From Candidatus Iainarchaeum sp. (GTDB lineage: Archaea; Iainarchaeota; Iainarchaeia; Iainarchaeales; JAFCCJ01), in NCBI GenBank assembly GCA_043816965.1, contig JBDRHK010000005.1, forward strand, positions 1 to 13,322: a stretch of DNA of 13,322 bases. Direction: 5' to 3'. A program made the translations under genes and the position numbers. Shown piece by piece: positions 1 through 13,322 of this stretch. Within the stretch, counting starts at the first letter, position 1. Each line of letters opens with the position of its first letter. The notes under the pieces were generated by a model. It had not been told where the DNA came from. It made no database searches and worked only from the letters and a program-made list of their open reading frames with translations.

Positions 1-75
1 GGTTTTCCCAATAAGATCCTTATTGCAGCAGGCGAGAACAACATTCTCCTGTATTCTGTGGATTTTTGCCAGCAA
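1..75 (-). CDS. DUF424-family protein, N-terminal part (runs off the window)
   Basis: Manual translation from TTG at 75, 2 nt after the aIF2-beta stop: MLAKIHRIQENVVLACCNKDLIGKT. This resembles the DUF424 N-terminus (xKxH...vlAxCDxeLlGk), a family often found next to aIF2-beta in archaea. Not in the ORF track. Confidence 0.7.
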   Translation of the reverse strand, partial: MLAKIHRIQENVVLACCNKDLIGKT

Positions 76-77
76 AA

Positions 78-482
78 TCAGACCCTCTTTACAGGGGACA
101 GGGCGCCGCAGGCATCGCATTTCATCATCCTTATTCCCTGCTGTTCAATAAATTTGGTGTCTGGCTTATGGCACTCATGGCAAAGCACATACTGCGTAAT
201 ATATGCGTGGAAAAACTTGTTTATCTGGTCATTGGTAAATTTAGAATTTAGCAGGAGTTTACCCTCTGAAACAACCGCCGAGGTTGCGGTTTCTTTGGTC
301 AAATACTTGAGAAGATGCCTTTCCTCCCGGTGAAGTGATTTCAGCACCTGCGCAAAATTATTCACGGCCGTTTTCTTTCCCTGAATATGGCTCTGCATTT
401 CAGGCATCTCAAATCTTTCCTTGCTCAGTGCCTCTTTCGGCAGGAGCATATAAGCCCTGTCCAGCATTTTCTCATATTCCAT
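78..482 (-). CDS. eif2b: Translation initiation factor 2 subunit beta (aIF2-beta)
   Basis: 134 aa; N-terminal YEKMLDRAY...ERFEMP; C-terminal zinc ribbon CHECHKPDT...CDACGA. Confidence 0.96.
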   Translation of the reverse strand: MEYEKMLDRAYMLLPKEALSKERFEMPEMQSHIQGKKTAVNNFAQVLKSLHREERHLLKYLTKETATSAVVSEGKLLLNSKFTNDQINKFFHAYITQYVLCHECHKPDTKFIEQQGIRMMKCDACGALSPVKRV

Positions 483-605
483 TAGACCACTTAAGAATTT
501 TTGCAGGGGATTGGTTAAAAAGCTTTGGTAGTTGGTTTTAGGAGTTGGGAGCCCGGGGCAAAGTTATTAATACTCTGGGGAATTATTATTTCAGCGGTTG
601 TTTTT

Positions 606-1208
606 ATGAAGAAAGAAAAAAAACAGGAAAACGGCTTCAGGAATATTTTAATAATTGGGGCAATTGCGATAATTTTCATTGCCGCAATAATATATGTTGC
701 CCAGACAAACCCGGGCCTGATGCAGGAAATGGTCGATAAATACGGCCTCCTTGGAATTTTCCTCGCATCACTGATTGCAAACGCAAGCCTTTTCTTCCCG
801 CTCCCTGTTGATTTTGTTGTTTTCTCAATAGGCCTGGTTTCTGACAACTGGGTTTACTCACTCATAATCGGAATAGTTGCCGGGACGGGTGCCGCGTTTG
901 GGGAAATGACCGGATATATCCTTGGCCTTTTCGGGGTAAAGGCTGCTGAAAAAATCAAGGAAACAAAATTCTACCGCATTAAGGAAATCAGCAGTAAAAT
1001 CAAGAATTCAGGGATGATTTTCATTTTCCTCGGGGCGTTCACTCCCTTCCCTTTTGATATTATTGGAATTGCCGCAGGCCTGATGAAGTACGATATAAGG
1101 AGATTCTTTATCGCCGTTCTTGCGGGAAAATTGGTTAGGTACACAATTCTCGCCATGGCAGGAGTTGTGGGAATTGAAGTTGTAAAATGGTTTTTTGGAT
1201 TGGGTTAG
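606..1208 (+). CDS. DedA/VTT (SNARE-associated) family membrane protein
   Basis: Hydrophobic; motifs GLLGIFLASLIANASLFFPLP, GAAFGEMTGYILG, FTPFPFDIIGIAAG, FFIAVLAGKLVRY. ATG at 606 preferred over the track's TTG at 525 (same frame) because a TTATTAAT TATA-like box lies at about 564-571. Confidence 0.88.
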   Translation: MKKEKKQENGFRNILIIGAIAIIFIAAIIYVAQTNPGLMQEMVDKYGLLGIFLASLIANASLFFPLPVDFVVFSIGLVSDNWVYSLIIGIVAGTGAAFGEMTGYILGLFGVKAAEKIKETKFYRIKEISSKIKNSGMIFIFLGAFTPFPFDIIGIAAGLMKYDIRRFFIAVLAGKLVRYTILAMAGVVGIEVVKWFFGLG

Positions 1209-2038
1209 AACCCAACCAATTTCAGAACCACAAATGCCAGCAGCATTAGGATTGTCTGCGGAGGCAGTGCAGGAAGCGCTGTCCCAACCCTTTTTGAAAC
1301 AAAGTTTATGGTCCAAAGTAGGCCGATGAGGGAAGCAATCAGAATCACAACTGGCGGGATGAAATATAGCGGGAATTCCAGAGCAGGATTTAATTTTGCA
1401 GCCCCGAGAAGTGATGCAGAAAAGACAAGGGGAATAACCATGTCCCCTGTTCCCAGCTCGAAGGTGTGCTCCTTTGTTGGGATGGCGTAGGTGAATGATA
1501 AATTTTTTGAGGAAATTGCCTTTGCCATTTTTACCATGTGCTTTGTTTTGAACACCGCAATAAAATCATAAACTGAAAGCAGAATCATGAAAATTATCAC
1601 AGGAATTATGCCCAATGAAACACCAAGCAATGCTCCAACAACAGCTGTTGAAATAATTGATGTCGCATTCCTGAGCCAGATATGTTTTGCGAAAACAATC
1701 CTCAGTAGAACTATTAGCAAAGATAGTGGAACTACTAGAAGTGAATCGTAGAATGTGGAAAACAATAGGGCGCTTGTTATGAAGATTATAAAAGATTCGA
1801 GAGCTTTGAAAACATAGTAAAGCCATTTTTCGGGAAAAAAGCGAATTACGATAATCCAGAAAAGCGCCCCTCCCAAAACAACAGCTATCAAATAAATGCT
1901 GTTAATTGGATCGCCAGGATCTTCAGAAATAAATGTGACTGTTACCTCTTCAGCAATAAAAAAATTCGCAGTCCATAAGCCAATCAGCTGGGTGACGATG
2001 AAAAGTGCCGCCAGGGAGAGTATTAATTTCCTGTTCAT
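1205..2038 (-). CDS. Presenilin/signal-peptide-peptidase family intramembrane aspartyl protease
   Basis: Multi-pass membrane protein with all three family motifs: YD (LSVYDFIAV), GxGD (ELGTGDMVIP) and PAL (ALPALPP). Confidence 0.93.
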   Translation of the reverse strand: MNRKLILSLAALFIVTQLIGLWTANFFIAEEVTVTFISEDPGDPINSIYLIAVVLGGALFWIIVIRFFPEKWLYYVFKALESFIIFITSALLFSTFYDSLLVVPLSLLIVLLRIVFAKHIWLRNATSIISTAVVGALLGVSLGIIPVIIFMILLSVYDFIAVFKTKHMVKMAKAISSKNLSFTYAIPTKEHTFELGTGDMVIPLVFSASLLGAAKLNPALEFPLYFIPPVVILIASLIGLLWTINFVSKRVGTALPALPPQTILMLLAFVVLKLVGF

Positions 2039-2083
2039 GGCAATAATTGGGGAGAAAGGAATTAAAACAGTTTTCCCTAGCCG

Positions 2084-2266
2084 CTAAAGTTTGAAGTAAA
2101 AACTGTAACAAAACCCCAGCAGGAAAATCACTATTGCCCCTGTGTTTGTGAAAACCCATGGCCCGAAACTAACCCCGAAAAGCATTAATGCAACAAGCCC
2201 TGTATAACCTATTATTGCCATCAAAATCCCCCGCACCAAATTGCTGAGTATGTCCATCTTTTTCAC
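2084..2266 (-). CDS. Small hypothetical membrane protein (2 TM, 60 aa)
   Basis: Two hydrophobic segments. ATGA start/stop overlap with the upstream ORF at 2263-2266 suggests translational coupling. Confidence 0.65.
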   Translation of the reverse strand: MKKMDILSNLVRGILMAIIGYTGLVALMLFGVSFGPWVFTNTGAIVIFLLGFCYSFYFKL

Positions 2267-2622
2267 CCCAAAATAATTATTGAAAGTATGAATGAACCAT
2301 ACATCTGCAGTTCATTTATGAAAATCAAATACTTTTTCAAATACTTGTTGTTCTCCACCAATGCAAGCACCGCTATTTTTGTAATGTAATAAATAAGCAA
2401 AGTGCCCCCGACAAAAAGTGGAATCCCTATAACCTTCTCAAAATCAAGGAAGGCGAAAAGTGTGATGAAAATCACAATAGAACCCTTCAGCACTTTCTTG
2501 CCCTCAAGGAAGATAAAAAACACCGCGAAAAGCATGAAAGTAATCATCACACTGTTTGTGGCCAGGCCTATAAACCAGCCCAGGTCAAGGGCATACAAAT
2601 GGCCAATTATTTCCAGCAACAT
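2263..2622 (-). CDS. Hypothetical membrane protein (about 4 TM, 119 aa)
   Basis: Strongly hydrophobic ORF; AAGTGA SD-like motif upstream; divergent from the Lrp gene across an AT-rich spacer. Confidence 0.75.
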   Translation of the reverse strand: MLLEIIGHLYALDLGWFIGLATNSVMITFMLFAVFFIFLEGKKVLKGSIVIFITLFAFLDFEKVIGIPLFVGGTLLIYYITKIAVLALVENNKYLKKYLIFINELQMYGSFILSIIILG

Positions 2623-2690
2623 TTTTATTCACTTTTTCCAGTTATAAGATAATTGCATTCTTTCTAATATTTAAAATATTTTATTGTTTT

Positions 2691-2738
2691 TTTTATCAAA
2701 TAGAAGTATTTAAATACATTTATTTACTTTTGATAAAA
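2691..2738. promoter_or_regulatory. Palindromic TATA box flanked by a 10-bp inverted repeat (candidate Lrp promoter/operator)
   Basis: GTATTTAAATAC perfect palindrome at 2706-2717, about 25 bp before ATG 2740 (leaderless spacing). TTTTATCAAA (2691-2700) and TTTGATAAAA (2729-2738) are exact reverse complements. Confidence 0.55.
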
Positions 2739-2739
2739 T

Positions 2740-3735
2740 ATGGCTGATTTAAACATAGACCTAAAAGACAGGAAAATCCTCTATGAACTGGATGTAAATG
2801 CAAGGCAGTCCCTCTCCAAAATCGCGAAAAAAGTCGGTTTAAGCAAGGAAGTGGTGAACTACAGAATCAACAGGATGATTGATGAAAAGCTGATAAGGAG
2901 TTTTTACGCGAGAATTGACACCTCAAAACTTGGTTTGACGCTTTTCAGGACTTTCATAAGAACCCAGAACCTTTCGCCGAAAAAGGAAAACGAGATGATT
3001 GAATATTTAAAAGGCAATCCAAAGATTGGTTTTTTTGTCAGGGTGGAAGGGAACTTTGATTTCAATTTCATTTACTGGTCAAAAGGGGTTTCAGAATATT
3101 TCCATTTCTGGCGGGAGTTCAAGGGGAAGTTTGGAAAATTCCTTGAGAGCAAACAGCTACATATCCTCGAATACTTTGCGAATTTCCCAAAGGGATTTCT
3201 AATCGGAAAAAAGGACCTCTCAATACCTTTTTTCGAGTGCGGCCTGAACAGGGAAATTGAAATCGACAGGGCAGATTACGAACTCCTCAACATCCTGGCA
3301 ACTGACGCAAGGAAACCGTTGATTGAGATTGCGCAGGAACTGAAAATTTCAGACAAGATGGTTTCCTACAGGATTAAGAAACTTGAGAAATTGGGGGTAA
3401 TCCATTCTTACGGGGTTCAGATTGATCTCGATAAAATAGGGTTGAATTATTATATGATTCACCTATTCTTCAAGGATTTCTCTGAGGAAAGGTTTAAGGA
3501 ACTGAAAAATTTCGCAATTACCCACCCATCCGTAGTGTACATTGATGAGGCGCTGGGAGGGCCTGATTTTGAGATAGAACTTTATATGCAAACAAAGCAG
3601 GAATACTATGAATTTCTCACTGAACTGAGATATAAATTTTCGGATTTGATAAGGGATTTCAGGACACTGCATTATCCTGAGGAATTCAAATTGGTCCTTT
3701 TCCCCTGGAAAGGGCAGACTATTCAAAAAGGCTAG
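2740..3735 (+). CDS. Lrp/AsnC family transcriptional regulator with two tandem wHTH-RAM units
   Basis: Unit 1: DLKDRKILYELDVNARQSLSKIAKKVGLSKEVVNYRINRM. Unit 2: IDRADYELLNILATDARKPLIEIAQELKISDKMVSYRIKKLEKLGVI. Each is followed by a RAM-like domain. Confidence 0.92.
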   Translation: MADLNIDLKDRKILYELDVNARQSLSKIAKKVGLSKEVVNYRINRMIDEKLIRSFYARIDTSKLGLTLFRTFIRTQNLSPKKENEMIEYLKGNPKIGFFVRVEGNFDFNFIYWSKGVSEYFHFWREFKGKFGKFLESKQLHILEYFANFPKGFLIGKKDLSIPFFECGLNREIEIDRADYELLNILATDARKPLIEIAQELKISDKMVSYRIKKLEKLGVIHSYGVQIDLDKIGLNYYMIHLFFKDFSEERFKELKNFAITHPSVVYIDEALGGPDFEIELYMQTKQEYYEFLTELRYKFSDLIRDFRTLHYPEEFKLVLFPWKGQTIQKG

Positions 3736-4372
3736 TGCCAATTCTCACCATTGTCGCCCCCTCTTCTACAGCGACAGCAAAATCATTGCTCATTCCCATA
3801 GAAAGTTCAGGCAGATTAAATTTCTCCCCCAATTCCTTCAGTGCAGAAAAATATCTCCTAGTTTCTTCTGCCCCCACAAGTGGGGCCATTGCCATAAAAC
3901 CTTGTAAATCCAAATTTCTCATTTTTTTAATCTCCCCAACAACATCCCCCAATTTCTCAGGCTCCAGGCCATACTTGCTCTTCTCCCCACTAACATTAAC
4001 CTCCAGCAGAATTTTCTGCCTTTTTCCAATTTCAGAAGCGGCGGAATCAATCTTAGCTGCAAGTTTTAATGAATCAACTGAATGAATCCATTCACAGTTC
4101 TCGACCGCTTTTCTGGCCTTGTTGGACTGCAGATGCCCTACAAAGTGCCAGTTAACCCCCTCAACAGAATCAACCTTTCCCAGCAATTCCTGCAATTTGT
4201 TTTCCCCGAGATCCCTTACGCCCAAGGAAATAAGTTCATTAATCTTGCCAATGGAACGGTTTTTTGTTACGGCAACAAGTTTAACCTCTTCAGGATTCCT
4301 GCCGGCCTTTTTGCAGGCTTCTGCAATCCCTTCCCTAATTGCAGAAAGATTTTCCCCTAGCATCAGATTCAC
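3719..4372 (-). CDS. yggS: YggS/PROSC pyridoxal-phosphate homeostasis protein
   Basis: LVAVTK (PLP lysine), GENKLQE, WHFVGHLQSNK, LSMGMSND, GATMVRIGT. GTG start overlaps the mcm stop (GTGA); an in-frame ATG at 4363 is the alternative start. Confidence 0.95.
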   Translation of the reverse strand: MNLMLGENLSAIREGIAEACKKAGRNPEEVKLVAVTKNRSIGKINELISLGVRDLGENKLQELLGKVDSVEGVNWHFVGHLQSNKARKAVENCEWIHSVDSLKLAAKIDSAASEIGKRQKILLEVNVSGEKSKYGLEPEKLGDVVGEIKKMRNLDLQGFMAMAPLVGAEETRRYFSALKELGEKFNLPELSMGMSNDFAVAVEEGATMVRIGTSLFE

Positions 4373-7300
4373 TGTTTGGCGGTTGGCTTTACAACGCCAT
4401 GTCTTGGCCTGTAAATATCCCCTGACTTCTCAAGCTTGCTGAGAATCTCCCTGACCTTTTCTGAATCAATCCCCTCAGTTTTTGATTCCTCAACAATATC
4501 CTCAATAGGAACCATCCCGTCATCTATCTCTGTAGATTTGCTCCTAATCATCCTAAGTATTTTTTTCAGATTTGTTATCTGGGTATGTGTCTGCCCTGAT
4601 GTAATAATATCAATATCAATCTTGCCTGTTTCAGGGTCTGTAACAACTTCCTGCAGGGAAGTCTTCACCAACCTTATTGCCCTTTCGGCATCCCGAATTT
4701 CCACAGTATTGCTAAGCCTGACCCTTGCGCTTGCCTCACTTAACCTAACTAACCCTTCCAATTGCCTGTGGGTTGCCGCGTAACTTCCTTCCTTCCTTCC
4801 TTGGTCACGCAGACTTATGTAGAAGTCAGAGAGTGCCTGTATGGATTCCTGGGTCAGAACCGGAAAAATATTCTGCCTTGCAAAGGAAAGATATTTTTTG
4901 AACAGGTCAGCGTCAATTGCAGGAGTTATACTTTTCTCCAGCTCTTTCCTATCCTCAGCACTCATCTTCTTTTTCATCTTCTTCTCGAGCCACATCTTTT
5001 CCCCTATCTGGTGTGTTTTCAAAATGTGCCTGGCAATGTCCTCGTCCTTCTTTCGATCCAACACATCCTTTAGCATGAAGAAGAGGTCGAACCTTGAAAT
5101 AAGTGTCGGGGGCAAATTTATCTGCTCAATGAAAGACATGAATTGGTCAAAGCGGCTGAATTTTGGATTGGCCGCCGCAAGAACACTTGTTTCTGTCTTG
5201 AAGGTTGTCACAATCCCTGCCTTTGCAACCGAAATCCTCTGCTGCTCCAGGGATTCATGCAGCGCGCTCCTGTCCTCGGCATCCATTTTATCCAGCTCAT
5301 CAATCAGGCAAATTCCGCCGTTAGCCAGTACCAAAGCTCCGGCCTTTAATGTCCATCCCCCTTCCCCAAAATCATCCTTAACGGCAGTTGCAGAAATTCC
5401 CGCACCACTAGAAGTTTTTCCCGCGATGTAAATGGATTTCGGGGCAATCTTATCTACAGCCATCAGCAACTGGGAGTTATGTGAAAAAACCATATTGGAA
5501 ATGAAATTATGGGTTCCTGCAACCTCTAAATCATAAACCCAATCAGCTGGCTCAATTTCCTTAACTTCCCTGACTTTATCCCAAAAAATGCTTGTTTTGG
5601 AAAGCTTGTAAAGGTTTAGGGCCTTTTCCTCAATTTCTTTATCAAACAGATTCCTGTTAAAATAGGCCTCTATCAGGCGATTGGCAATTAAAAGTAATTG
5701 TTCTCTTGAAGGGTTTCTATCTCCCCTTTCGTAGTGCCGATAACTAGTTCTTGCAACACCCATTTCGAATTGCGTTAAACCAATTTTTTTTCTCAAAAAC
5801 TTTAATTCCTTGTTTAGATTTGGCACAACATCGTTGTTAGTATTAAAAAGTTTTGAATTAAGTATTTTCTCCTTTGCTTTCTTGATTTTTCTTCCCGAAA
5901 TAAAACCCACAGTTTTCACATATTTTTTCGCAAATTTGCCGCCAATTGTAAGTTTGAAATACTTTCTTTTAATTTTCTTGGTTGTGTTGGTGGCCATATT
6001 CCAAATTTCTTTCTTTACAGATACAATCTCAAATCTGGATAGTAGGATAATAAGCCCATCAATTAATTCCTCGCTGGCGGAAGATATTTCAATAAATCTA
6101 CAATCGTTCCTAACACTTCCCTCTGTTTCAATAAATACCTTCAGAAATTCCTTAACAACACTGTCGGGAGATGACATTATTGAATTCGGAATTGTTCTTT
6201 GCCTAGACAGCCTTGAAAGCTCTACGAAATTTTTTTCAATAAATTCCCCAAGTTCTACGCTAGAAAACATGATCCTTGTTGCGTTGCTCTTGAAATCTCT
6301 GCAATGTTTTATTCCAAATAACTCCTCAGCGCATTCAACAAAGTCATCAACTACTTCCTTATCACTGTTTGTAAATTCCAACGCGACTGTTGAATGTTTT
6401 TTGTTAATATGGCCCTCCGCAAGCATATAACCAACAACCCTCGCTAGTTTTTCATCCAGAACTTCAGGAGTAAGAATATGTCTTGCGTTTGTTTTTCCCA
6501 GAGTAATCTTTGTGTCAAGTTTTTGGACAGCCCCCTTAACTGTGACCGTCCTGGGTATGGCAATAAAATCCCCCTTTTTTAAGTCCATGGTTTTGACGGC
6601 CTTCACCTTTCCCCCAACAGATGCAAAAAGGGGATGGGTATGGGTTGCTTTAATTTCTTTTCCTGTAGATGTCTTCACAAAGAACATTCTGTCAGGCCTT
6701 CTTTTCATTGCCCTGACGGCAACACCTCTCTCAAGCTCACAATCCCCGTTCAAAATTGGCAATCTTTTAAAAGTGTTTGAAAAAAAGCCGTCATCCAATT
6801 TCTGTCTTTCTCCTTCCAGACTTTCTTCAACCAAATCTTTAATTTCCTTGGAAGTTCCATCTTCGAGCAATAATTTTGTTGAACCATCAACGCATTTCGC
6901 CAAACCCGGGTCACCAACAAGCAAGATATGGATATTCCCTCTCAGCTTGTTATCTCCTGGGAGGACCTTTCTTACCCCCCCAAACAGCTGCAGGGCAATT
7001 GCCTCCTTAATCATTTCATGCCCGTAAATTGTCTGGGCAATGCTCTTGACCAGCAGTTCGTAAATATCCGGCTTTGCCGCAAGCTCCCTAATCAGTTTCT
7101 CATCTTCAGGTGTAATCTCAATATCCTCAAACTCCTGCATGGTTTCCTCTATATGCAGTGCCTCAAGATATCTCCCATAGATTGTTTTCTTGTCCTTTGG
7201 GGGAATAAGCCTCAATATCCCGCTTATCCTTGTCCTGTCCCCCGGGGAAACCTGGTTTACCAAATCATCGCTGACATAAATATCCAAAGTTGCGGCCTGT

Positions 7301-7908
7301 TCATTTCCCTTAAGCATCTCAAGTGGCTCCTGGGTTTTTATTTTTTGATAATCAACAAACTCAGACTCCTCTGACACCAAATTGAAAGAGCGGTGCTTGC
7401 ACTCGCAGATGTAAGGCGGCTTTGATTGGTGGTCGCTCTGGGGGATTTTGTAGGTATTGCCACAGCGGGTGCATTCCCATGTCGCCATTTTAAGCTTAGG
7501 CATTACTTCGGTTAACTGGCCAACAACACCCTCAACAGAAATCAGTTTCCCGAGGTGGGATGCACTGATATTCCTCAGCAATGGCTGCTGCTCTTTGGGA
7601 AGGTTAAAGACCCTTATGTGCGGGGAAAAGTCCTCCAGTTCCAGGGCAGGAACGTCGATGTTCTTTATCGCCTCCTTTGCGGCCTCAAGAACATAGTCAG
7701 GGTTTATGAGCAGCTCATCAGCCAGCTCAAAATCAAACAGTTCAATATCCTTGAAATCAATGGGGAGGCTCCTTTTTTGCGGATAATTCTCCACAAGCCT
7801 CTGGATATCCTTTATGCACTTCTCTTTCAGGAAAGCCTCAATTTTCGGGATAAATGGATTTGAGGCATCGGTTTCAGTTTTCTCGGCAAATTCCAATCTT
7901 ACACCCAT
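4369..7908 (-). CDS. mcm: MCM replicative helicase precursor containing one intein
   Basis: Zn finger CTRC...CEC; Walker A GDPGLAK/S split by the intein; Walker B CLIDELDKM; AAANP; arginine finger SRFDL; C-terminal wHTH. About 706 aa after intein removal. ATG at 7908 chosen; the track starts at TTG 7911. Confidence 0.97.
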   Translation of the reverse strand: MGVRLEFAEKTETDASNPFIPKIEAFLKEKCIKDIQRLVENYPQKRSLPIDFKDIELFDFELADELLINPDYVLEAAKEAIKNIDVPALELEDFSPHIRVFNLPKEQQPLLRNISASHLGKLISVEGVVGQLTEVMPKLKMATWECTRCGNTYKIPQSDHQSKPPYICECKHRSFNLVSEESEFVDYQKIKTQEPLEMLKGNEQAATLDIYVSDDLVNQVSPGDRTRISGILRLIPPKDKKTIYGRYLEALHIEETMQEFEDIEITPEDEKLIRELAAKPDIYELLVKSIAQTIYGHEMIKEAIALQLFGGVRKVLPGDNKLRGNIHILLVGDPGLAKCVDGSTKLLLEDGTSKEIKDLVEESLEGERQKLDDGFFSNTFKRLPILNGDCELERGVAVRAMKRRPDRMFFVKTSTGKEIKATHTHPLFASVGGKVKAVKTMDLKKGDFIAIPRTVTVKGAVQKLDTKITLGKTNARHILTPEVLDEKLARVVGYMLAEGHINKKHSTVALEFTNSDKEVVDDFVECAEELFGIKHCRDFKSNATRIMFSSVELGEFIEKNFVELSRLSRQRTIPNSIMSSPDSVVKEFLKVFIETEGSVRNDCRFIEISSASEELIDGLIILLSRFEIVSVKKEIWNMATNTTKKIKRKYFKLTIGGKFAKKYVKTVGFISGRKIKKAKEKILNSKLFNTNNDVVPNLNKELKFLRKKIGLTQFEMGVARTSYRHYERGDRNPSREQLLLIANRLIEAYFNRNLFDKEIEEKALNLYKLSKTSIFWDKVREVKEIEPADWVYDLEVAGTHNFISNMVFSHNSQLLMAVDKIAPKSIYIAGKTSSGAGISATAVKDDFGEGGWTLKAGALVLANGGICLIDELDKMDAEDRSALHESLEQQRISVAKAGIVTTFKTETSVLAAANPKFSRFDQFMSFIEQINLPPTLISRFDLFFMLKDVLDRKKDEDIARHILKTHQIGEKMWLEKKMKKKMSAEDRKELEKSITPAIDADLFKKYLSFARQNIFPVLTQESIQALSDFYISLRDQGRKEGSYAATHRQLEGLVRLSEASARVRLSNTVEIRDAERAIRLVKTSLQEVVTDPETGKIDIDIITSGQTHTQITNLKKILRMIRSKSTEIDDGMVPIEDIVEESKTEGIDSEKVREILSKLEKSGDIYRPRHGVVKPTAKQ
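5476..6894 (-). mobile_element. Intein (473 aa) with LAGLIDADG homing endonuclease and XRE-like HTH, inserted in MCM Walker A between Lys and Ser
   Basis: N-junction AK|CVDGST; block B IKATHTHPLF; LAGLIDADG-like helices VVGYMLAEG and FLKVFIETEG; block F VYDLEVAGTHNF; C-junction SHN|SQLL. Confidence 0.95.
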
Positions 7909-7926
7909 CAATTTGGCATTAAGCCA

Positions 7927-7941
7927 CTTATAAACACTTTC
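7927..7941 (-). promoter_or_regulatory. Putative BRE-TATA promoter of mcm
   Basis: Minus strand reads GAAAGTG-TTTATAAG; the TATA box (7934-7927) lies 19-26 bp upstream of the mcm ATG. Confidence 0.5.
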
Positions 7942-8118
7942 GGAGGTGGATTTCCGGTGCGGACAACTGCCATATCAGTTGACACTACGGCCTATACTGC
8001 GTATAGGCCTTGCTCGCCCTATGGGCTCGCTACACGCCTATCTGCGTGTACACGACCACCCCTGTTTTGCGCCCTGTTGGGCACTCGCAGGGATATTGCT
8101 CACCTTATGGGCTCGCTA
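7941..8118 (-). ncRNA. Unidentified GC-rich multi-hairpin element (ncRNA or structured ssDNA)
   Basis: 57% GC by hand count over 7941-8120 versus 24% over 8161-8250. Closely spaced hairpins at 8098-8116, 8058-8094, 8031-8050, 8012-8030, 7989-8009, 7964-7981, and a weaker one at 7941-7956. G-T wobbles and tandem G.A pairs favour the minus strand. Confidence 0.55.
8010..8118. repeat. 23-bp direct repeat pair inside the hairpin element
   Basis: TTGCTCGCCCTATGGGCTCGCTA (8010-8032) versus TTGCTCACCTTATGGGCTCGCTA (8096-8118): 21 of 23 identical. Confidence 0.9.
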
Positions 8119-8148
8119 AATGACCTTTAACTTGATACCCCACCATCT

Positions 8149-8176
8149 ATTTGTATTGGGAGAATTTGTATTGGGA
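8149..8176. repeat. Tandem 13-bp direct repeat ATTTGTATTGGGA x2
   Basis: Exact copies at 8149-8161 and 8164-8176 (15-bp period), at the edge of an AT-rich tract. Confidence 0.85.
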
Positions 8177-8273
8177 ATTTAATGCGAATTCTGGAAAAAT
8201 TTCCAAAAAATCAATTCTATATTAATATGTCTGGAAAATTATTAACCCTACTCAGTTAGGAATCTGAACTTTG

Positions 8274-8318
8274 TCAATTACATTCCCATCGGAATAATTC
8301 GTTGGATTTAACCTTCAT
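8274..8318 (-). CDS. Possible 14-aa micro-ORF MKVKSNELFRWECN
   Basis: Strong SD GGAGGTGG (8330-8323) just upstream of ATG 8318; mirror image of the plus-strand SD-ATG at 8462-8480. Confidence 0.3.
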   Translation of the reverse strand: MKVKSNELFRWECN

Positions 8319-8482
8319 CCCACCACCTCCAATAGAGAATTTTTTCTAAGGACTCTGATTTTTCGGCTTAAACCTTTGCACGCCTAATCTCTAATTTTGG
8401 TGCAAAGGATTTAATGCCTCCAAAATCAGCAGAGACGTCCACGAAAAAATTCATTATTCTTGGAGGTGGTTTGATTGATGAA
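8314..8482. repeat. ~170-bp interrupted inverted repeat (back-to-back promoter/UTR/SD modules, or a long hairpin)
   Basis: Nested complementary blocks: TTCATC 8314/GATGAA 8477; ACCACCTCCAA 8322/TTGGAGGTGGT 8460; GAATTTTTT 8337/AAAAAATTC 8444; GGAC 8350/GTCC 8437; CTGATTTT 8355/AAAATCAG 8422; GGC-TTAAA 8365/TTTAA-T-GCC 8410; CCTTTGCAC 8373/GTGCAAAGG 8400; 18-nt central spacer. Confidence 0.9.
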
Positions 8483-8609
8483 TTTTCCAAATTTTCAACT
8501 TCCCACAATGGAAGAGATTAGAATGGCTGAAGAATCGGCCAGAACAAATCCGGAAAACCTAACAGACAGGGAACTCTGGATTCTGAAAGAGGTAGGAGGT
8601 GATTTCTGA
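8478..8609 (+). CDS. Small acidic hypothetical protein, 43 aa (MNFPNFQLPTMEEIRMAEESARTNPENLTDRELWILKEVGGDF)
   Basis: SD GGAGGTGG at 8462-8469, ATG 8478, purine-rich coding-like composition. Its TGA overlaps the next ATG (TGATG). Confidence 0.6.
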   Translation: MNFPNFQLPTMEEIRMAEESARTNPENLTDRELWILKEVGGDF

Positions 8610-8674
8610 TGCTTTACCGCATCGGAAACCTACTCCCGAAATGCAATATAAATAAATTTTTGGTGATTAGATAG
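8609..8674 (+). CDS. Possible 21-aa micro-ORF (MLYRIGNLLPKCNINKFLVIR) or truncated gene remnant
   Basis: Perfect SD GGAGGTGA at 8595-8602; TGATG coupling; TAG ends at the SD-like GGGGCGA of the endonuclease gene. Confidence 0.4.
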   Translation: MLYRIGNLLPKCNINKFLVIR

Positions 8675-8686
8675 GGGCGAATTTGC

Positions 8687-9775
8687 ATGAGTAAGAAAAT
8701 TGAGATTGATGAATCAGTTCTTGAAGATCTTTATTTGGAGGAAAAGAAATCCAGTTATGAGATTGCCAAGATTTTCAACTGTGACTCAACAGTTATTCAA
8801 AGAAGGCTGAAAGAACACAGAATCGAATTGAGACAACCAAAGAAGAGAATAGACATTCCAAAAGAAGTGTTAGAGAAACTTTATTGGACTGAAAATCTCT
8901 CAACTTACAAAATATCTAAAAAGTTAGGTATTGGCAGGACAACAATTTGGAGCAAATTAGATGAATTAAACATTGAGAGAAGGAAACTTAAGCGGGTTCC
9001 AATTTCAAAGGAAACATTGAATAATCTTTATTGGGATCGGCGATTGTGCGCTAGAGAAATTGGAGAAATCTACAACGTATCCCATTCAGTTATTTTAGAT
9101 AAGTTATACAAAAACGGCATAAGAACAAGGGATACTGGGGAAGCCGGAGAAATTTATCCAAAAACAGATTTCTCAGGCGATTTAGAAGAAAAAGCGCATA
9201 TGATTGGTTTCAGATTAGGTGATTTATATTGTATTCGAATGAGCCCAAGATTGGTTAGAGTTTCATCCAATACTACAAAAAAAGCACAGTTGAAATTGAT
9301 GAAGGATGTTTATGGGGGATATGGGCGACCTTGGATTAAAGAATATTCAGGCACGTTCAATTTTCACTGTCACCTAAATAACACCTTTTCCTTCTTAGTG
9401 CCTAAAAAGGACAGGATTGAAAGATGGATTCTTAAGAACAATAATTATTTTTGTGCCTTTTTTGCAGGCTATGTTGATGCTGAAGGAACAATTAAGATTT
9501 ATAACAAACGAGCCAGATTTAGAGTAGGCTCTTACGATAAAGGGCTTTTGAAAGATGCCTCTGGGAAATTGACAGAGTTTGGAATCAGGCACACTTACCG
9601 AATCGATTCCTTTAAGGGTAAGAATCAGAATAGTGATTTTTGGAGGATTGGAATATGTGAAAAGCAATCCCTATTAAAAGTTTTTAACCTAATAGGACCA
9701 TATATGAAACATGGGGATAGGCTGAAAGACCTTGAAAATGCCAAAGATAATGTTATTCAGAGATTAAAAAAATGA
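8687..9775 (+). CDS. Free-standing double-motif LAGLIDADG homing endonuclease with three N-terminal HTH-like repeats
   Basis: Three ~50-aa repeats (I..E.LE.LY..E..S.YEI.K.....T.I...L....I..R), then motif 1 AHMIGFRLGDL and motif 2 FFAGYVDAEGTI. No intein splice residues. Confidence 0.88.
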   Translation: MSKKIEIDESVLEDLYLEEKKSSYEIAKIFNCDSTVIQRRLKEHRIELRQPKKRIDIPKEVLEKLYWTENLSTYKISKKLGIGRTTIWSKLDELNIERRKLKRVPISKETLNNLYWDRRLCAREIGEIYNVSHSVILDKLYKNGIRTRDTGEAGEIYPKTDFSGDLEEKAHMIGFRLGDLYCIRMSPRLVRVSSNTTKKAQLKLMKDVYGGYGRPWIKEYSGTFNFHCHLNNTFSFLVPKKDRIERWILKNNNYFCAFFAGYVDAEGTIKIYNKRARFRVGSYDKGLLKDASGKLTEFGIRHTYRIDSFKGKNQNSDFWRIGICEKQSLLKVFNLIGPYMKHGDRLKDLENAKDNVIQRLKK

Positions 9776-9791
9776 AGGGGGTGAAGCGGCT

Positions 9792-11946
9792 ATGAAGTTT
9801 TATGTGACAACTGCAATAGATTATCCATCTTCTAAGCCCCATCTTCGGCCATGCCTATGAGAAAACGGTTAGCGATGTCCAGGCAAGATGGCACAAATTG
9901 AAGGGGGAAGAGGTATTTTTCCTTACAGGGACCGATGAGCATGGGATGAAAATCCAGCGTGCTGCTGAAAAGGAAGGGAAGAAGCCCAAGGAATTTGTGG
10001 ATGAAAAAACTGCACTCTTCAAGGAATTGTGCAAAAAATGGAACATTTCCTACGACCGCTTCATAAGAACAACAGATAAGCAACACGAGAAAGTCTGCCA
10101 GGAAATTTTCCAGAAAGTTCTCGATAAGGGAGATATCTATTTAGGAAATTATGAAGGGCTTTACTGCACTGATTGTGAAAGGTTTTATTTGGAGAAGGAT
10201 TTAATCGGTGGTTTGTGCCCAATTCATAAAAAACCTGCCGAGAATGTGAAGGAGCCGAGTTATTTTTTCAAGATGGGCAAATACCAGAAACAGTTGCTGG
10301 ATTATTTTGATAAGAATCCTGATTTCATTTCTCCAAGATCTAGGAGGCAGGAAATTATTAACAGGGTAAATGAAGGACTACTTGATTTAAGCGTAAGCAG
10401 GGCAACCTTCGACTGGGGAATCCCCTTATCCAACGATGGAAAACACGTAATTTACTGTTGGTTTGATGCCCTTCTCAATTATATTTCGGGAATTGATTAC
10501 GGTACAAAGAAGTTTGATAAATACTGGCCTGCCGATGTGCACAACATTGGCAAAGATATCCTCTGGTTTCACAGCGTTATTTTTCCTATAATGCTTTTCG
10601 CTGCCGGAATCGAGCCCCCGAAAAAAGTTTTTGTCCATGGTTTTATCAACACAGAAACCGGGGAGAAAATGTCAAAAAGTTTGGGAAATGTTATTGACCC
10701 AATTGCTTTGGCAAATGAGTTTGGCGTTGACCCTGTTCGTTATTTCCTCCTGCGTGAGATTCCTTTTGGCGAAGATGGCTTCTTTTCACTTAGCGGTCTT
10801 GCCACCAGAAACAACAACGAGCTCGCAAATGAGTTAGGCAATTTACTGAACAGGACAATTGTTCTGATTGAAAAAAACTACAAAGGAAAAATCCCGGCAG
10901 GAAAAACTGACTCAGAATTGCAGAAAAAACTGGATTTGAAAAAGATTGAAAAATTATTGGACAAGTTCGAACTGCACACCGCGCTCGGGGAAATTTTCGT
11001 ATTCATCTCAGCCTGCAACAAATACATCAATGATAAGGAGCCCTGGAAATTGAAGGGAAAGGAACTGGACAATGTCCTCTATGGCCTTGCAGATTCGCTC
11101 AGAATAATTTCCATCCTCATCTCCCCCTTTATCCCAAACAGTTCTGAGGAAATTAACAAACAATTGGGAGTAAATACAGGTTTACTGAAAGATTGTAAAT
11201 TCAATCTCCTTAAAGCAGGGACAAAAGTGAAAAAAGGGGAAGTTTTGTTTAAAAAAATTGAAATTAAGGAAGAAGTTGGGCCAAAAGCAAGGGAAATTTC
11301 GGTTACTGTTGACCCTGAAATGAAAAACCTGGATTTCAAATTGGTTGCGGCAGTTATTGAGGGGGTGAAGGTAAAGAAAAAGCACATGGGCCTTGAGAAA
11401 GCAAAAAAGGATGTTGTTGATAACACAGACATCCATAAGATTGAGAAGACAGATATTGTGAAAGGGTATTTGGAATTGTATGATGCAATTGGGGTGAAGA
11501 GAGAAGAGCATGCGGTAAAGAATCTGGTTGAGATTTCGAAAAAAGGCGGGAAACTTCCCACCATCAACACTGTTGTCGATTCCTATAATTTAGTTTCCCT
11601 TGACAAGCTGGTTATTGTCGGCGCGCACGATTTGGAAAAAATAAATGGAAATATCCGAATCAAGATTGCCAAGGGAGATGAACTCTACATCCCCCTCGGA
11701 AATGACAAACCAATGAAAATTCAAAAAGGGGAGTATGTTTTTGTTGATGATAAGGTTGTTTTATGCAGGCTGGATGTGAAACAGGGGGAGCATACAAAGG
11801 TCACCCCAACAACGAGGAATGTTTTCCTTTATGTGCAAGGAAATAAATACACCTCTCAAGAATATATTGAGAAAGCGATGAAAGAAGCCATTGATAACAT
11901 CACAAAATACTGCGGTGGAAAGGCAAAAAGCCTAAACGTCAAATAG
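9792..11946 (+). CDS. metG: Methionyl-tRNA synthetase (single-knuckle MetRS1 type) with C-terminal B3/B4 domain; needs a +1 frame change at 9843-9847
   Basis: SD GGGGTGA at about 9778-9784. ATG 9792 gives MKFYVTTAIDYPSSKPHL; the +1 frame from 9847 gives GHAYEKTVSDVQARWHKLKGEEVFFLTGTDEHG and joins the track ORF at 9898. Also CTDC...CPIH knuckle, YCWFDALLNY, IGKDI and KMSKS (10666-10680). 717 aa if joined. Confidence 0.95.
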
Positions 11947-12694
11947 AGTTCACAATTTTTTCGGTAACTTTTTTCGCGGCAACTAATCCTTTCCCATCCT
12001 CATCCTTTTCAGGATTAAATTCCACCAAATCTATGGCCCTGACTTTTCCTGACAAAAAAACAAGCCCAATCAGTTCCAGCAATTGGTCCACACTTAATCC
12101 GCCCCTTTCCAGATAACCTGTCGCGGGAAAAATTTTCGGGTCAAGAACATCCAAATCAATTGAAAGGTAAATGTGATTTTGTTCCTCAACAAAATTTTTC
12201 ATTTCAATTTTCGCCTTATCAAAATCATTATGGATTTTCCTGGAATTAATTGCCTTAATTCCCTTTTCCTCCAGAAATTCCTGTTCCTGTTCCCAGATTT
12301 TCCTTAATCCCACAAGCAGCAGTTTTTCCTTTTCAAGCAACCCGTCATCAATAAGCTCCCTGTTCATGTCCTCATGCGATACAGGCTTTATCCCCTTCAT
12401 TGCATCTGCATGGGCATCAAAAACAATCAGGGAAGAATTCTCAAAATTTTCTGAAAAAGCCCTGAACAGGGAATAGGTGATTGAATGGTCCCCGCCCATG
12501 AAAAATGGATTCTCCCTAATAACTTCCCTTGCTTTTGAATAAACATTCCCATCAGTTGCAACAATATCGCCTGCAACTACCTCTACTTCCTCCCCCTCAA
12601 CACCCAGCTCCCTGCACAAAACCTCAGGCGCCTTCTCACAGCCCAGATTTTTATCAAGCGAACCCTGCGAGGATGGGATTTTTATTATTTTCAT
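11939..12694 (-). CDS. speB: Arginase/agmatinase (ureohydrolase) family protein, probably agmatinase
   Basis: GGDHS, DAHAD, SIDLDVLDP, ATG...GGL and DLVEFNP metal-binding motifs. Lies directly downstream of aIF5A, a common archaeal pairing. Substrate cannot be proven from sequence. Confidence 0.8.
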   Translation of the reverse strand: MKIIKIPSSQGSLDKNLGCEKAPEVLCRELGVEGEEVEVVAGDIVATDGNVYSKAREVIRENPFFMGGDHSITYSLFRAFSENFENSSLIVFDAHADAMKGIKPVSHEDMNRELIDDGLLEKEKLLLVGLRKIWEQEQEFLEEKGIKAINSRKIHNDFDKAKIEMKNFVEEQNHIYLSIDLDVLDPKIFPATGYLERGGLSVDQLLELIGLVFLSGKVRAIDLVEFNPEKDEDGKGLVAAKKVTEKIVNSI

Positions 12695-12734
12695 AATAGG
12701 AAAGAATTCAATTCAATAGAAAAAGTTATTGCGA

Positions 12735-13130
12735 TTACTTCTTCCTCAAAATTTTAATATGGTCCCCGAACTGGATGTATTCCACTTCTGAGCCGGACTG
12801 CAAGCCAGTAACATCCTTTGGCTTCTGCACATCAAAAGTCACATAGGAACTCATATCCATTATCTGCATAGAGTCCCCCATTACGGCAACAACCTGGCCA
12901 TTTCCCCTGTTGATAATTGGAATCTCAATATCTGCGGAGGTTGGCTTTAACAAATTCCTCTTCTGACCTGAAAAAATACCAATTGCAACAATCCTCACCT
13001 TCGCAGAACCATGCTTCCCTGGCTTGCTTTTCTCGACCGTTTTCACCTGGCAGACATCGTCCTCAATAAGGACATAATTGCCCGGTTTCAACTGCCCTGC
13101 AGGCCCGAATTTCTTCTCAATTTCCGTCAT
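12735..13130 (-). CDS. eif5a: Translation factor aIF5A
   Basis: 131 aa with the hypusine loop SKPGKHGSAK. Confidence 0.97.
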   Translation of the reverse strand: MTEIEKKFGPAGQLKPGNYVLIEDDVCQVKTVEKSKPGKHGSAKVRIVAIGIFSGQKRNLLKPTSADIEIPIINRGNGQVVAVMGDSMQIMDMSSYVTFDVQKPKDVTGLQSGSEVEYIQFGDHIKILRKK

Positions 13131-13162
13131 TTCATTTCCCCAAGAAAAAAAGGTAAATAGTG

Positions 13163-13178
13163 TTTAAATAGCTTTTGC
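13163..13178 (-). promoter_or_regulatory. Putative BRE-TATA promoter of aIF5A
   Basis: Minus strand GCAAAAGC-TATTTAAA, 33-40 bp upstream of ATG 13130. Confidence 0.55.
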
Positions 13179-13184
13179 AGGAAC

Positions 13185-13322
13185 GTATCTGCTAACAACT
13201 TATGGCTGTTTTGAGGGTCTGGAATAGGGGTTTTTCTTGTTGTTTCCAGGTGGCAAGCATCGTGTTCACGATGCCCATTGTGTCCGCCCCATGCTCCGCC
13301 CGCAGCCCGCCTATTATTTTGC
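13185..13322 (-). mobile_element. Right end of an IS66-family (ISBst12-like) insertion sequence
   Basis: Contains the transposase-like C-terminus. The element appears to end ...GTTAGCAGATAC (GTATCTGCTAAC on plus from 13185), matching the GTA start of IS66 terminal repeats. GC rises abruptly here. Confidence 0.6.
13192..13322 (-). CDS. IS66-family transposase, C-terminal fragment
   Basis: Manual translation from 13320: KIIGGLRAEHGADTMGIVNTMLATWKQQEKPLFQTLKTAISC*, resembling the RKixGgxRsexGa...sllaTwkqqg tail of IS66 transposases. Not in the ORF track. Confidence 0.68.
   Translation of the reverse strand, partial: KIIGGLRAEHGADTMGIVNTMLATWKQQEKPLFQTLKTAISC

Follow-up and report, generated by a model that had tools for sequence, protein, structure and literature searches.

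The window examined here is a stretch of 13,322 nucleotides (nt) from Candidatus Iainarchaeum sp. (assembly GCA_043816965.1, contig JBDRHK010000005.1, positions 1 to 13,322), in which an mcm gene occupies positions 4369..7911 of the minus strand. The gene matches MCM (2.6e-84), Intein_splicing (5.5e-19) and LAGLIDADG_3 (1.1e-15) and encodes an MCM protein with a LAGLIDADG intein; its open frame starts with a TTG (7911-7909), and an ATG stands at 7908-7906. Upstream of mcm lie a promoter module (7928..7962, minus strand) and then an array of hairpins (7964-8117), which is the subject of this report. We read the array, at a probability of roughly 0.55, as two units, set head-to-tail, from a family of dispersed repeats that are strand-oriented and built of three hairpins; each would be a small element, either non-autonomous and mobile or propagated by recombination, with a lifestyle like that of the repetitive extragenic palindromic (REP) sequences and bacterial interspersed mosaic elements (BIMEs) of bacteria.

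On the minus strand, positions 8117-7964 hold six hairpins, letter for letter as listed in the initial annotation, which was made from the sequence alone. The first three form repeat unit A (8032..8117, minus strand, 86 nt). Its first hairpin, H1a (8116-8098, GC-GA-GCC/cataa/GGT-GA-GC), contains tandem G.A pairs and one G.T pair; H2a (8094-8058, ATCCCTG-cga-GTGCCC-aaca-GGGCGC-aaaa-CAGGGGT) belongs to a long branched subtype that also occurs on contigs C63 and C89 of the same genome and at four loci of a congener; and H3a (8050-8031, TACACGC-agatag-GCGTGTA) has a conserved GGTCGTG before it. Repeat unit B (7964..8031, minus strand, 68 nt) follows head-to-tail, with H1b (8030-8012, GCGAGCCC-ata-GGGCGAGC), H2b (8009-7989, GGCCTATAC-gca-GTATAGGCC, with a C-GCA-G triloop) and H3b (7981-7964, CAACTG-atatgg-CAGTTG). 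Base 8031 closes H3a in the fold, yet is assigned to unit B as its first base. The initial annotation had described the two GCGAGC hairpins as a repeated module, with a change from G-C to G-T as one of their differences, and the sequence bears this out. Its range for the element, 7941..8118, holds for the hairpins and has to be given up for 7941-7963, 23 nt that belong to the separate promoter module, and what it took for a single unexplained element is in fact two tandem copies of a dispersed repeat.

The hairpin stretch is a GC island (55-60% GC) within a spacer of 26-37% GC. With RNA parameters the minus strand folds at -80.4 kcal/mol (z = -4.79, 0 of 200 shuffles being as good) and the plus strand reaches z = -3.15; with DNA parameters, z is -3.44 for the minus and -2.98 for the plus strand. 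The hairpins at 7964-8117 are real and beyond chance. No known RNA identity had been suspected for them, and none emerged: Rfam 15 gave no match at gathering score across the whole window, a search of 7800-8700 at E values up to 10 gave two chance matches only, both outside the element, and ARAGORN found neither a tRNA nor a tmRNA in the window.

When a 200-nt query was run as DNA against the genome to which the window belongs (G000; 1.34 Mb, 109 contigs, 86% complete), it returned partial copies of differing query segments on many contigs, and set side by side these loci define one module of ~65-87 nt with three hairpins. H1 consists of (A/T/G)GCGAG, a short stem-loop and YGAGC, and is closed by two Watson-Crick pairs and tandem G.A. 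A short AA or TA linker leads to H2, a variable hairpin of 7-9 bp that is branched in some copies. H3 begins with a GTCGTGT lead-in, followed by a 6-7-bp stem with an AGATAG loop, which is found in 17 of 46 aligned units, near variants being present in most of the rest. RNAalifold, run on an alignment of ten units (A1), recovered H2 and H3, 13 of their 17 pairs showing compensatory changes, and a covariance model of 69 positions and 21 pairs (R1) was built from the same alignment. R1 scores unit A at 57.6 bits (E 3.5e-14) and unit B at 82.6 bits (E 1.2e-21). It has 27 matches in G000 at E below 1e-3 and 29 in the congener, G001; two of the G000 matches, C40:36-100 and C89:7053-7117, are identical in sequence and both at contig ends, and probably represent one locus. 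Across the order, matches occur in 27 of 151 genomes and amount to more than 100 copies, and among 151 genomes drawn from the phylum the 24 carriers all belong to that same order. Other carriers include G049 (11 matches), G122 (9), G017 and G116 (8 each) and G026 (7); since R1 derives from copies in G000, counts in distant families are lower bounds. In G017, G049 and G026, which belong to other families, H1 and H2 are recognisable and the sequence of H3 is lineage-specific.

Loose regular expressions for H1 and H3 matched shuffled sequence just as often, and the covariance model was used instead. In scans for spread beyond the order, a pattern with 14 specified bases did no better than chance in viral_contigs and genome_contigs, with 0 of 80 viral loci passing R1, and a 20-base gapped pattern gave 97 stretches in viral_contigs, of which 80 were searched and none passed. 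Literature searches on Iainarchaeota, DPANN and archaea retrieved no pertinent description of such repeats, which is not proof of absence. Among public sequencing runs none of RNA was listed, and those of DNA had shares of at most 0.20. The family is a new, well-defined set of structured dispersed repeats with an unusual, precise relation to tRNA ends and to one type of promoter.

Alignment A2, comprising the 45 distinct units of G000 and G001, is paired in 96.7% of 838 cells, as against 68.8 +/- 1.2% after shuffling (0 of 500 shuffles reach the observed value), a figure inflated by the fitting of A2 to the model. Both-sided changes affect 19 of 21 pairs, and the covariation score is 0.599, versus 0.179 in shuffled alignments and at most 0.087 when partners are slid by 1-3 columns. 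In helix 1 (H1; 94.5% paired) the outer and inner pairs covary over the 45 copies, and in helix 2 (97.1% paired) 8 of 9 pairs have changed on both sides. Conserved sequence lies in the loops and linkers, the stems being variable. Wobble pairs are one-sided overall, with 51 G.T versus 12 A.C, about half of the G.T excess stemming from two H2 columns (12 + 15 cells). The G.T to A.C ratio is 11:3 for opposite-strand units after tRNA 3' ends, 8:1 for same-strand units before tRNA 5' ends and 12:3 for units at promoters. The folding strand is intrinsic to the element, and its wobble bias is independent of the direction of the neighbouring tRNA or host transcript. Clean C-NNN-G triloops are found in 23 of 46 H2 loops (GAA 10, AAA 4, CGC 4, GCA 3, GGA 1, ATA 1), the remainder comprising eight long branched forms and others that are ragged in the alignment, and H1 shows the same habit of C-G-closed triloops. 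DNA mini-hairpins of the GCGNAGC/GCGNNAGC type are described, in the relevant part of a 2026 review (PMC13037366), as extraordinarily stable, with RNA counterparts considerably less so, and as occurring at single-stranded DNA (ssDNA) priming sites and N4 promoters.

What directly follows the H3 (3') end of a unit or array is a tRNA 5' end, a tRNA 3' end, the promoter module or another unit, and the sequence just 5' of the array is usually T-rich. With intron-aware ARAGORN, a unit lies within 13 nt of 12 of the 33 tRNAs predicted in G000, some of the intron-bearing predictions possibly being misidentified. Three of the 12 have the unit on their 5' side, always on the same strand and at a gap of 0-1 nt (tRNA-Ser on C70, tRNA-Ser on C19 and tRNA-Cys on C90), and nine have it on their 3' side, always on the opposite strand and at a gap of 0-13 nt. 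On C70 and C90 a TATA-like box stands ~25 nt before the first unit; at all three loci there is no room for a promoter between unit and tRNA, so that these units must be pre-tRNA leaders. A scripted classification of the 45 units of G000 and G001 placed 13 at tRNA 3' ends, 5 at tRNA 5' ends, 10 at the promoter module, 4 at the next unit and 13 elsewhere; by eye, 5 of the last 13 are also tRNA-related, one of them lying within a tRNA intron of G001. The same layout recurs in G017, G049 and G026, and in the complete genome of G017 (99% complete) at least 13 of 45 predicted tRNAs are flanked by units, judged by eye. According to crude calls of open reading frames (ORFs), 22 arrays have an ORF upstream of them; in 13 cases it is co-directional, and 10 of these arrays lie 4-70 nt past its stop. 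The cumulative GC skew of G017 is lowest near 0.13 Mb and highest near 1.01 Mb. Of 16 matches to a strict pattern, ~13 were recognised by eye as units, and their orientation does not switch cleanly with replication direction, a comparison that tRNA orientation confounds.

Two further observations concern the tRNA genes themselves. At C66:1680-2069 of G000, two convergent intron-bearing tRNA predictions are parted only by two back-to-back units, the H3 end of each pointing at a tRNA 3' end. Many tRNA genes of this genome are interrupted: plain ARAGORN predicts 19 tRNAs versus 33 in the intron-aware mode, with introns of 9-308 nt, and some of the predictions (tRNA-Pyl, 308-nt intron) look doubtful.

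Comparison of the two congeners reveals turnover. The first 20 of the 29 unit loci of G001 were set against G000; 14 also carry units there, one faces an empty site and five are not resolvable. At the shared sites the orthologous units are 0.53-0.86 identical, compared with 75-91% for the flanks, and in no more than 3 of the 14 comparisons does a unit match its orthologue best. The mcm locus has two units in G000 and one in G001, the latter of a subtype closest to the copy on C9 of G000, and a tRNA-Ala locus has one unit in G000 and two in G001. Two precise filled/empty comparisons are available. A 60-nt unit in G001 (C28) sits exactly between 'gtggttttt' and the promoter module, and the flanks are joined on C31 of G000; conversely, two units on C63 of G000 face continuous sequence on C16 of G001. 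An antisense unit makes up most of the intron of a tRNA-Ala(CGC) in G001 (L089, C55:4193-4878, unit at 301-386), an intron of ~113 nt near the canonical position whose boundary was read by eye and for which the ARAGORN fold is poor. The G000 orthologue of this tRNA was searched for and not found, nor was a counterpart to the flanks of the C96 locus of G000 found in G001. We also note, adjoining a unit array, an indel of ~3.2 kb: at C89:3799-6975 a segment between a conserved flank and the unit/tRNA-Val locus is present in G000 only, relative to L094 (G001, C40).

At mcm the array is placed between conserved upstream motifs and the promoter module. The latter (CCGCACCGGAAAtccacctCCGAAAGtgTTTATAA) lies outside the repeat unit and comprises a weak hairpin (CGGA..TCCG), CCGAAAG, which we take to be similar to a transcription factor B recognition element, and TTTATAA, presumably TATA-like. 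It is one instance of a recurrent module with the consensus (C)CGCACCGGAAAc...CCGAAA...TTTAWAA. The motif [CT]GCACCGGAA has 29 copies in G000, and the core CACCGGAA occurs 66 times versus 24-41 times in shuffles. The module precedes mcm in the window's genome, G017, G026 and G049, and it occurs without a unit at the empty site on C31 and before mcm in G017 and G026, which have the CACCGGAA module and a TATA box there and no unit; mcm of G122 likewise has no unit. Copies in G000 include C22:1072, C22:30201, C26:23415, C31:28878, C81:9288, C21:8102, C15:44594 and C66:622. At least eight copies stand ~51-56 nt before the starts of free-standing LAGLIDADG ORFs, at positions that coincide with matches to PF14528, and others precede small ORFs that resemble PIN, AbrB or HicB proteins by eye. 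Mobile cassettes may carry the module with them as a portable promoter, or it may be an upstream element used throughout the lineage. PF14528 (LAGLIDADG_3) itself has 33 matches in the 1.34 Mb of G000, some of them inteins within long ORFs and many others free-standing genes of ~210-450 aa. Two of the matches fall in the window, namely the mcm intein and a free-standing helix-turn-helix-LAGLIDADG gene (8687-9775, plus strand) that points away from mcm and starts 570 nt from the array. Nothing ties the units to mcm or to this gene.

The spacer holds two more features. Upstream of the array, a direct repeat (tcccaatacaaat, twice, at ~8140-8175 on the minus strand) has similar TCCCAATAC/TCCCAATGC motifs before mcm in G001, G049 and G017, and repeats of the TCCCAATAC type could be a regulator site for mcm. 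A micro-ORF, MKVKSNELFRWECN, lies at 8274-8318 (minus strand), a few nt past GGAGGTG; G001 has ...KSNELFQWECG* at this position, making this a conserved ORF of 14-17 codons between the LAGLIDADG gene and mcm.

An element that acts as a folded single strand is favoured by the placement rule taken together with the wobble strand intrinsic to the units, their DNA-type triloops, their turnover and the existence of empty sites. We infer that a unit is copied or inserted in this form, more likely as DNA than as RNA, and that it would go in directly 5' of a segment that already has structure, on either strand, depending on which is exposed. Such a segment could be a tRNA gene or its complement, H1 of another unit, or the weak hairpin in the promoter module (CGGA..TCCG at mcm, CCGGAA..TTCCGG at C96). 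Insertion 5' of a structured segment would account for all placements with one rule, putting units on the same strand at tRNA 5' ends and on the opposite strand at tRNA 3' ends. The mcm array is probably a passenger that came to lie at a hot spot for insertion, and it would influence mcm expression only as a spacer, if at all. A bolder version of this reading, which we put forward only tentatively, is that of an undescribed archaeal mobile element that travels as folded ssDNA without an HUH/Y1 transposase and inserts with fixed polarity 5' of structured DNA (tRNA genes on either strand, hairpin promoters and its own copies), building tRNA leaders and trailers and occasionally seeding introns.

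Several points weigh against the mobile-element reading. A mobilising enzyme was not found: the Y1 transposase PF01797 has 0 matches in G000, G001, G017 (99% complete) and G116, and TnpB (PF07282) has 0 matches in G000. Neither of the two empty sites shows a target duplication, terminal inverted repeats are absent, and GTTT/GGTTT microhomology at the C63/C16 junction makes a slippage deletion an alternative explanation there. With 14 of 20 sites common to the congeners, movement must be slow, or else arrays change via recombination. One tRNA of G017 departs from the placement rule, with H1 on the opposite strand, 8 nt ahead of the tRNA 5' end. Unit-like hairpins also precede mcm in G049, a member of another family, and could mean a local function and not a hot spot. 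The three tRNA leaders are necessarily transcribed, leaving room for a role as RNA, and folding with DNA or RNA parameters gives similar z on both strands and does not discriminate between the two. The model-fitted pairing of A2 and the two columns behind much of the G.T excess, given above with their figures, belong here as well.

The most serious rival, which we consider possible and rather doubtful, is an RNA cassette that serves the host, the units acting within pre-tRNA leaders, 3' untranslated regions (UTRs) and spacers, possibly as exonuclease blocks, as processing or protein-binding signals (the tandem G.A of H1, the AGATAG of H3) or as an aid to termination before a tRNA or promoter. 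It would account for the strong covariation, for the better RNA fold on the unit strand (z of -4.79 vs -3.15), for the leaders on C70, C19 and C90 and for the ten arrays 4-70 nt past a co-directional stop, positions like those of REPs in 3' UTRs; given the layout [T-rich]-[unit]-[protected element], incoming transcription would also read the units in the sense competent for G.U pairs. At the nine tRNA 3' ends and in the G001 intron, however, the tRNA-sense transcript is the reverse complement of the unit, yet the bias stays on the unit strand (11:3). T-runs terminate archaeal transcription, and many units follow a T-run that should stop it; units at promoters lie outside the downstream mRNA; a terminator role clashes with the leader positions; C-G-closed triloops dominate, and not GNRA or UNCG tetraloops; and subtypes are replaced at orthologous sites, which is unexpected of a locus-specific function. 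That the units are boundary elements of duplex or cruciform DNA, in which GCGAG..YGAGC, GTCGTGT and AGATAG are protein sites that insulate tRNA genes and strong promoters from transcription or supercoiling, seems improbable. The precise, oriented placement at the outer edges of tRNAs and just upstream of the promoter module would suit such a role, as would the conservation of loops and linkers while stems vary, and REP/BIMEs are described, in the passage cited, as binding sites for several proteins (PMC2817692). A duplex site, on the other hand, would neither keep G.T on one strand only nor need compensatory changes in its stems, an insulator would not be expected where some units lie, between a tRNA and its own promoter, and no candidate protein was identified.

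The initial annotation had proposed a new noncoding RNA, or a folded ssDNA signal tied to replication or to the adjacent endonuclease. In its general form, a single RNA gene or a folded ssDNA signal such as a single-strand origin or a primase site, working for mcm, for replication or for the LAGLIDADG endonuclease, this proposal now appears very unlikely. The lack of an Rfam match, the mini-hairpins of the GNA type known from ssDNA priming sites and N4 promoters (PMC13037366, in the part cited) and the unit before mcm in G001 and G049 agree with it. The dispersed copies in G000 (27, at unrelated loci and mostly beside tRNA genes), in G001 (29) and in 27 of 151 genomes of the order do not support a unique RNA or a signal for mcm, replication or the endonuclease, and units are missing at mcm in G017, G026 and G122 and differ at this gene in number and subtype between the congeners, and the free-standing LAGLIDADG gene starts 570 nt off and is oriented away. 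Many dispersed copies had been named in advance as the outcome that would reclassify the element as a MITE- or REP-like repeat (MITE, miniature inverted-repeat transposable element), and the genome and order searches returned exactly that. The ssDNA-style signatures noticed in the window proved genuine and family-wide, both the one-strand G.T pairs (51 vs 12) and the C-NNN-G triloops, with GAA commonest. Of the checks proposed, covariation yielded abundant compensatory changes, among paralogous copies and not among orthologues of one locus, and folding with DNA versus RNA parameters supported the structure both ways and left DNA and RNA unseparated.

Reading the array as a dispersed repeat removes a false lead: nothing particular to mcm, replication or a homing endonuclease can be learned from the element. 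What replaces the lead is a defined family of structured repeats, searchable with a 69-position model, in small DPANN genomes that have little DNA to spare. The combination of oriented abutment to tRNA ends, an intrinsic strand, DNA-type triloops and no transposase found offers a concrete case for how hairpin modules spread in archaea, and the intronic copy in G001 connects it with the problem of where the introns of archaeal tRNA genes come from. In annotation work, the units explain GC-rich islands resembling noncoding RNAs beside tRNAs and promoters in these genomes, and they may also account for tRNA genes missed by plain tRNA scans.

Among known systems, the REP/BIME elements of bacteria are mobilised by REP-associated tyrosine transposases (RAYTs; Y1/HUH), according to the passages cited from PMC2817692, PMC3116915 and PMC3733652. 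REPs are characterised, in the part of PMC3733652 on which we draw, as palindromes of 20-40 bp with a GTAG or CGTC tag; many have a RAYT gene nearby, and the RAYT protein cuts them in single-stranded form. So described, they share with the present family the form of short, GC-rich, extragenic hairpin repeats in tens of copies, often arrayed, with strand-specific single-strand structures, a copy number and presence that vary among relatives, and possible positions in 3' UTRs. They differ in being single palindromes of 20-40 bp, whereas the present unit is a three-hairpin module of 65-87 nt, and in alternating within arrays, whereas the present arrays run head-to-tail with one back-to-back pair (C66). 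The tag is not shared either: the units begin with WGCGAG and lead into H3 with GTCGTGT, and GTAG is seen only as a variant in unit B. Further differences are the archaeal host, the exact abutment to tRNA ends in fixed orientation, and the failure to find a RAYT in 4 of the 6 carrier genomes tested. PF01797 has two matches each in G049 and G122, the only positives among the six, and the searches for Y1 transposase and TnpB show no consistent association with carriage of the units. The units do not look like MITEs, as their ends (WGCGAG.../...H3 stem) form no inverted repeats and neither filled/empty comparison reveals a duplication.

The non-autonomous elements derived from IS200/IS605, also called palindrome-associated transposable elements, carry strand-specific hairpins, lack terminal inverted repeats (TIRs) and target site duplications (TSDs), and are moved by TnpA in trans along an ssDNA route. 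The present family resembles them in having no TIR or TSD, in being strand-specific and hairpin-dependent, in the likely involvement of ssDNA and in its T-rich 5' flank, which recalls insertion 3' of a short T-rich target. It departs from them in that no TnpA or TnpB was found in G000 and in that the 3' neighbour, a structured segment, is also specific, which to our knowledge is not a feature of IS200/IS605-derived elements.

With respect to structure, the C-GNA-G triloops on short GC stems, seen in short forms of H1 such as GCGAACGAAGTGAGC and in many H2 caps, are like the GCGNAGC/GCGNNAGC mini-hairpins covered in the cited part of PMC13037366; those are single functional sites in phage or plasmid ssDNA, whereas here they are modules of a dispersed chromosomal repeat. 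Two other candidates were considered and rejected. A K-turn has tandem sheared G.A pairs beside a 3-nt bulge (or a terminal loop), and H1 is not such a K-turn or K-loop (L7Ae site), its tandem G.A lying between Watson-Crick pairs and lacking any adjoining bulge. An archaeal replication origin, which takes the form of a cluster of origin recognition boxes (ORB/mini-ORB) about an AT-rich unwinding element at one or a few places in the chromosome, is out of keeping with units at more than 20 loci, mostly beside tRNAs.

A last comparison is with archaeal tRNA introns. The units are not introns of the bulge-helix-bulge (BHB) kind as a class: only 1 of the 45 units of G000 and G001 is intronic (in G001), no G000 match lies inside a predicted tRNA, the internal loop of H1 is a symmetric 2x2 G.A loop and not a BHB, and no BHB is evident by eye at the unit borders. 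In Thermoproteales, transposed tRNA introns are described as similar introns found across tRNA genes, spread at the DNA level by an unknown mechanism (Fujishima et al. 2010, as related in the passage cited from PMC4090602). Most copies of the present family differ from these in lying outside tRNAs, at their ends or at promoters. Both systems nevertheless place similar short sequences at different tRNA genes, and one unit, in G001, occupies an intron near the canonical position; the spread of the Thermoproteales introns is the nearest archaeal precedent for the family described here.

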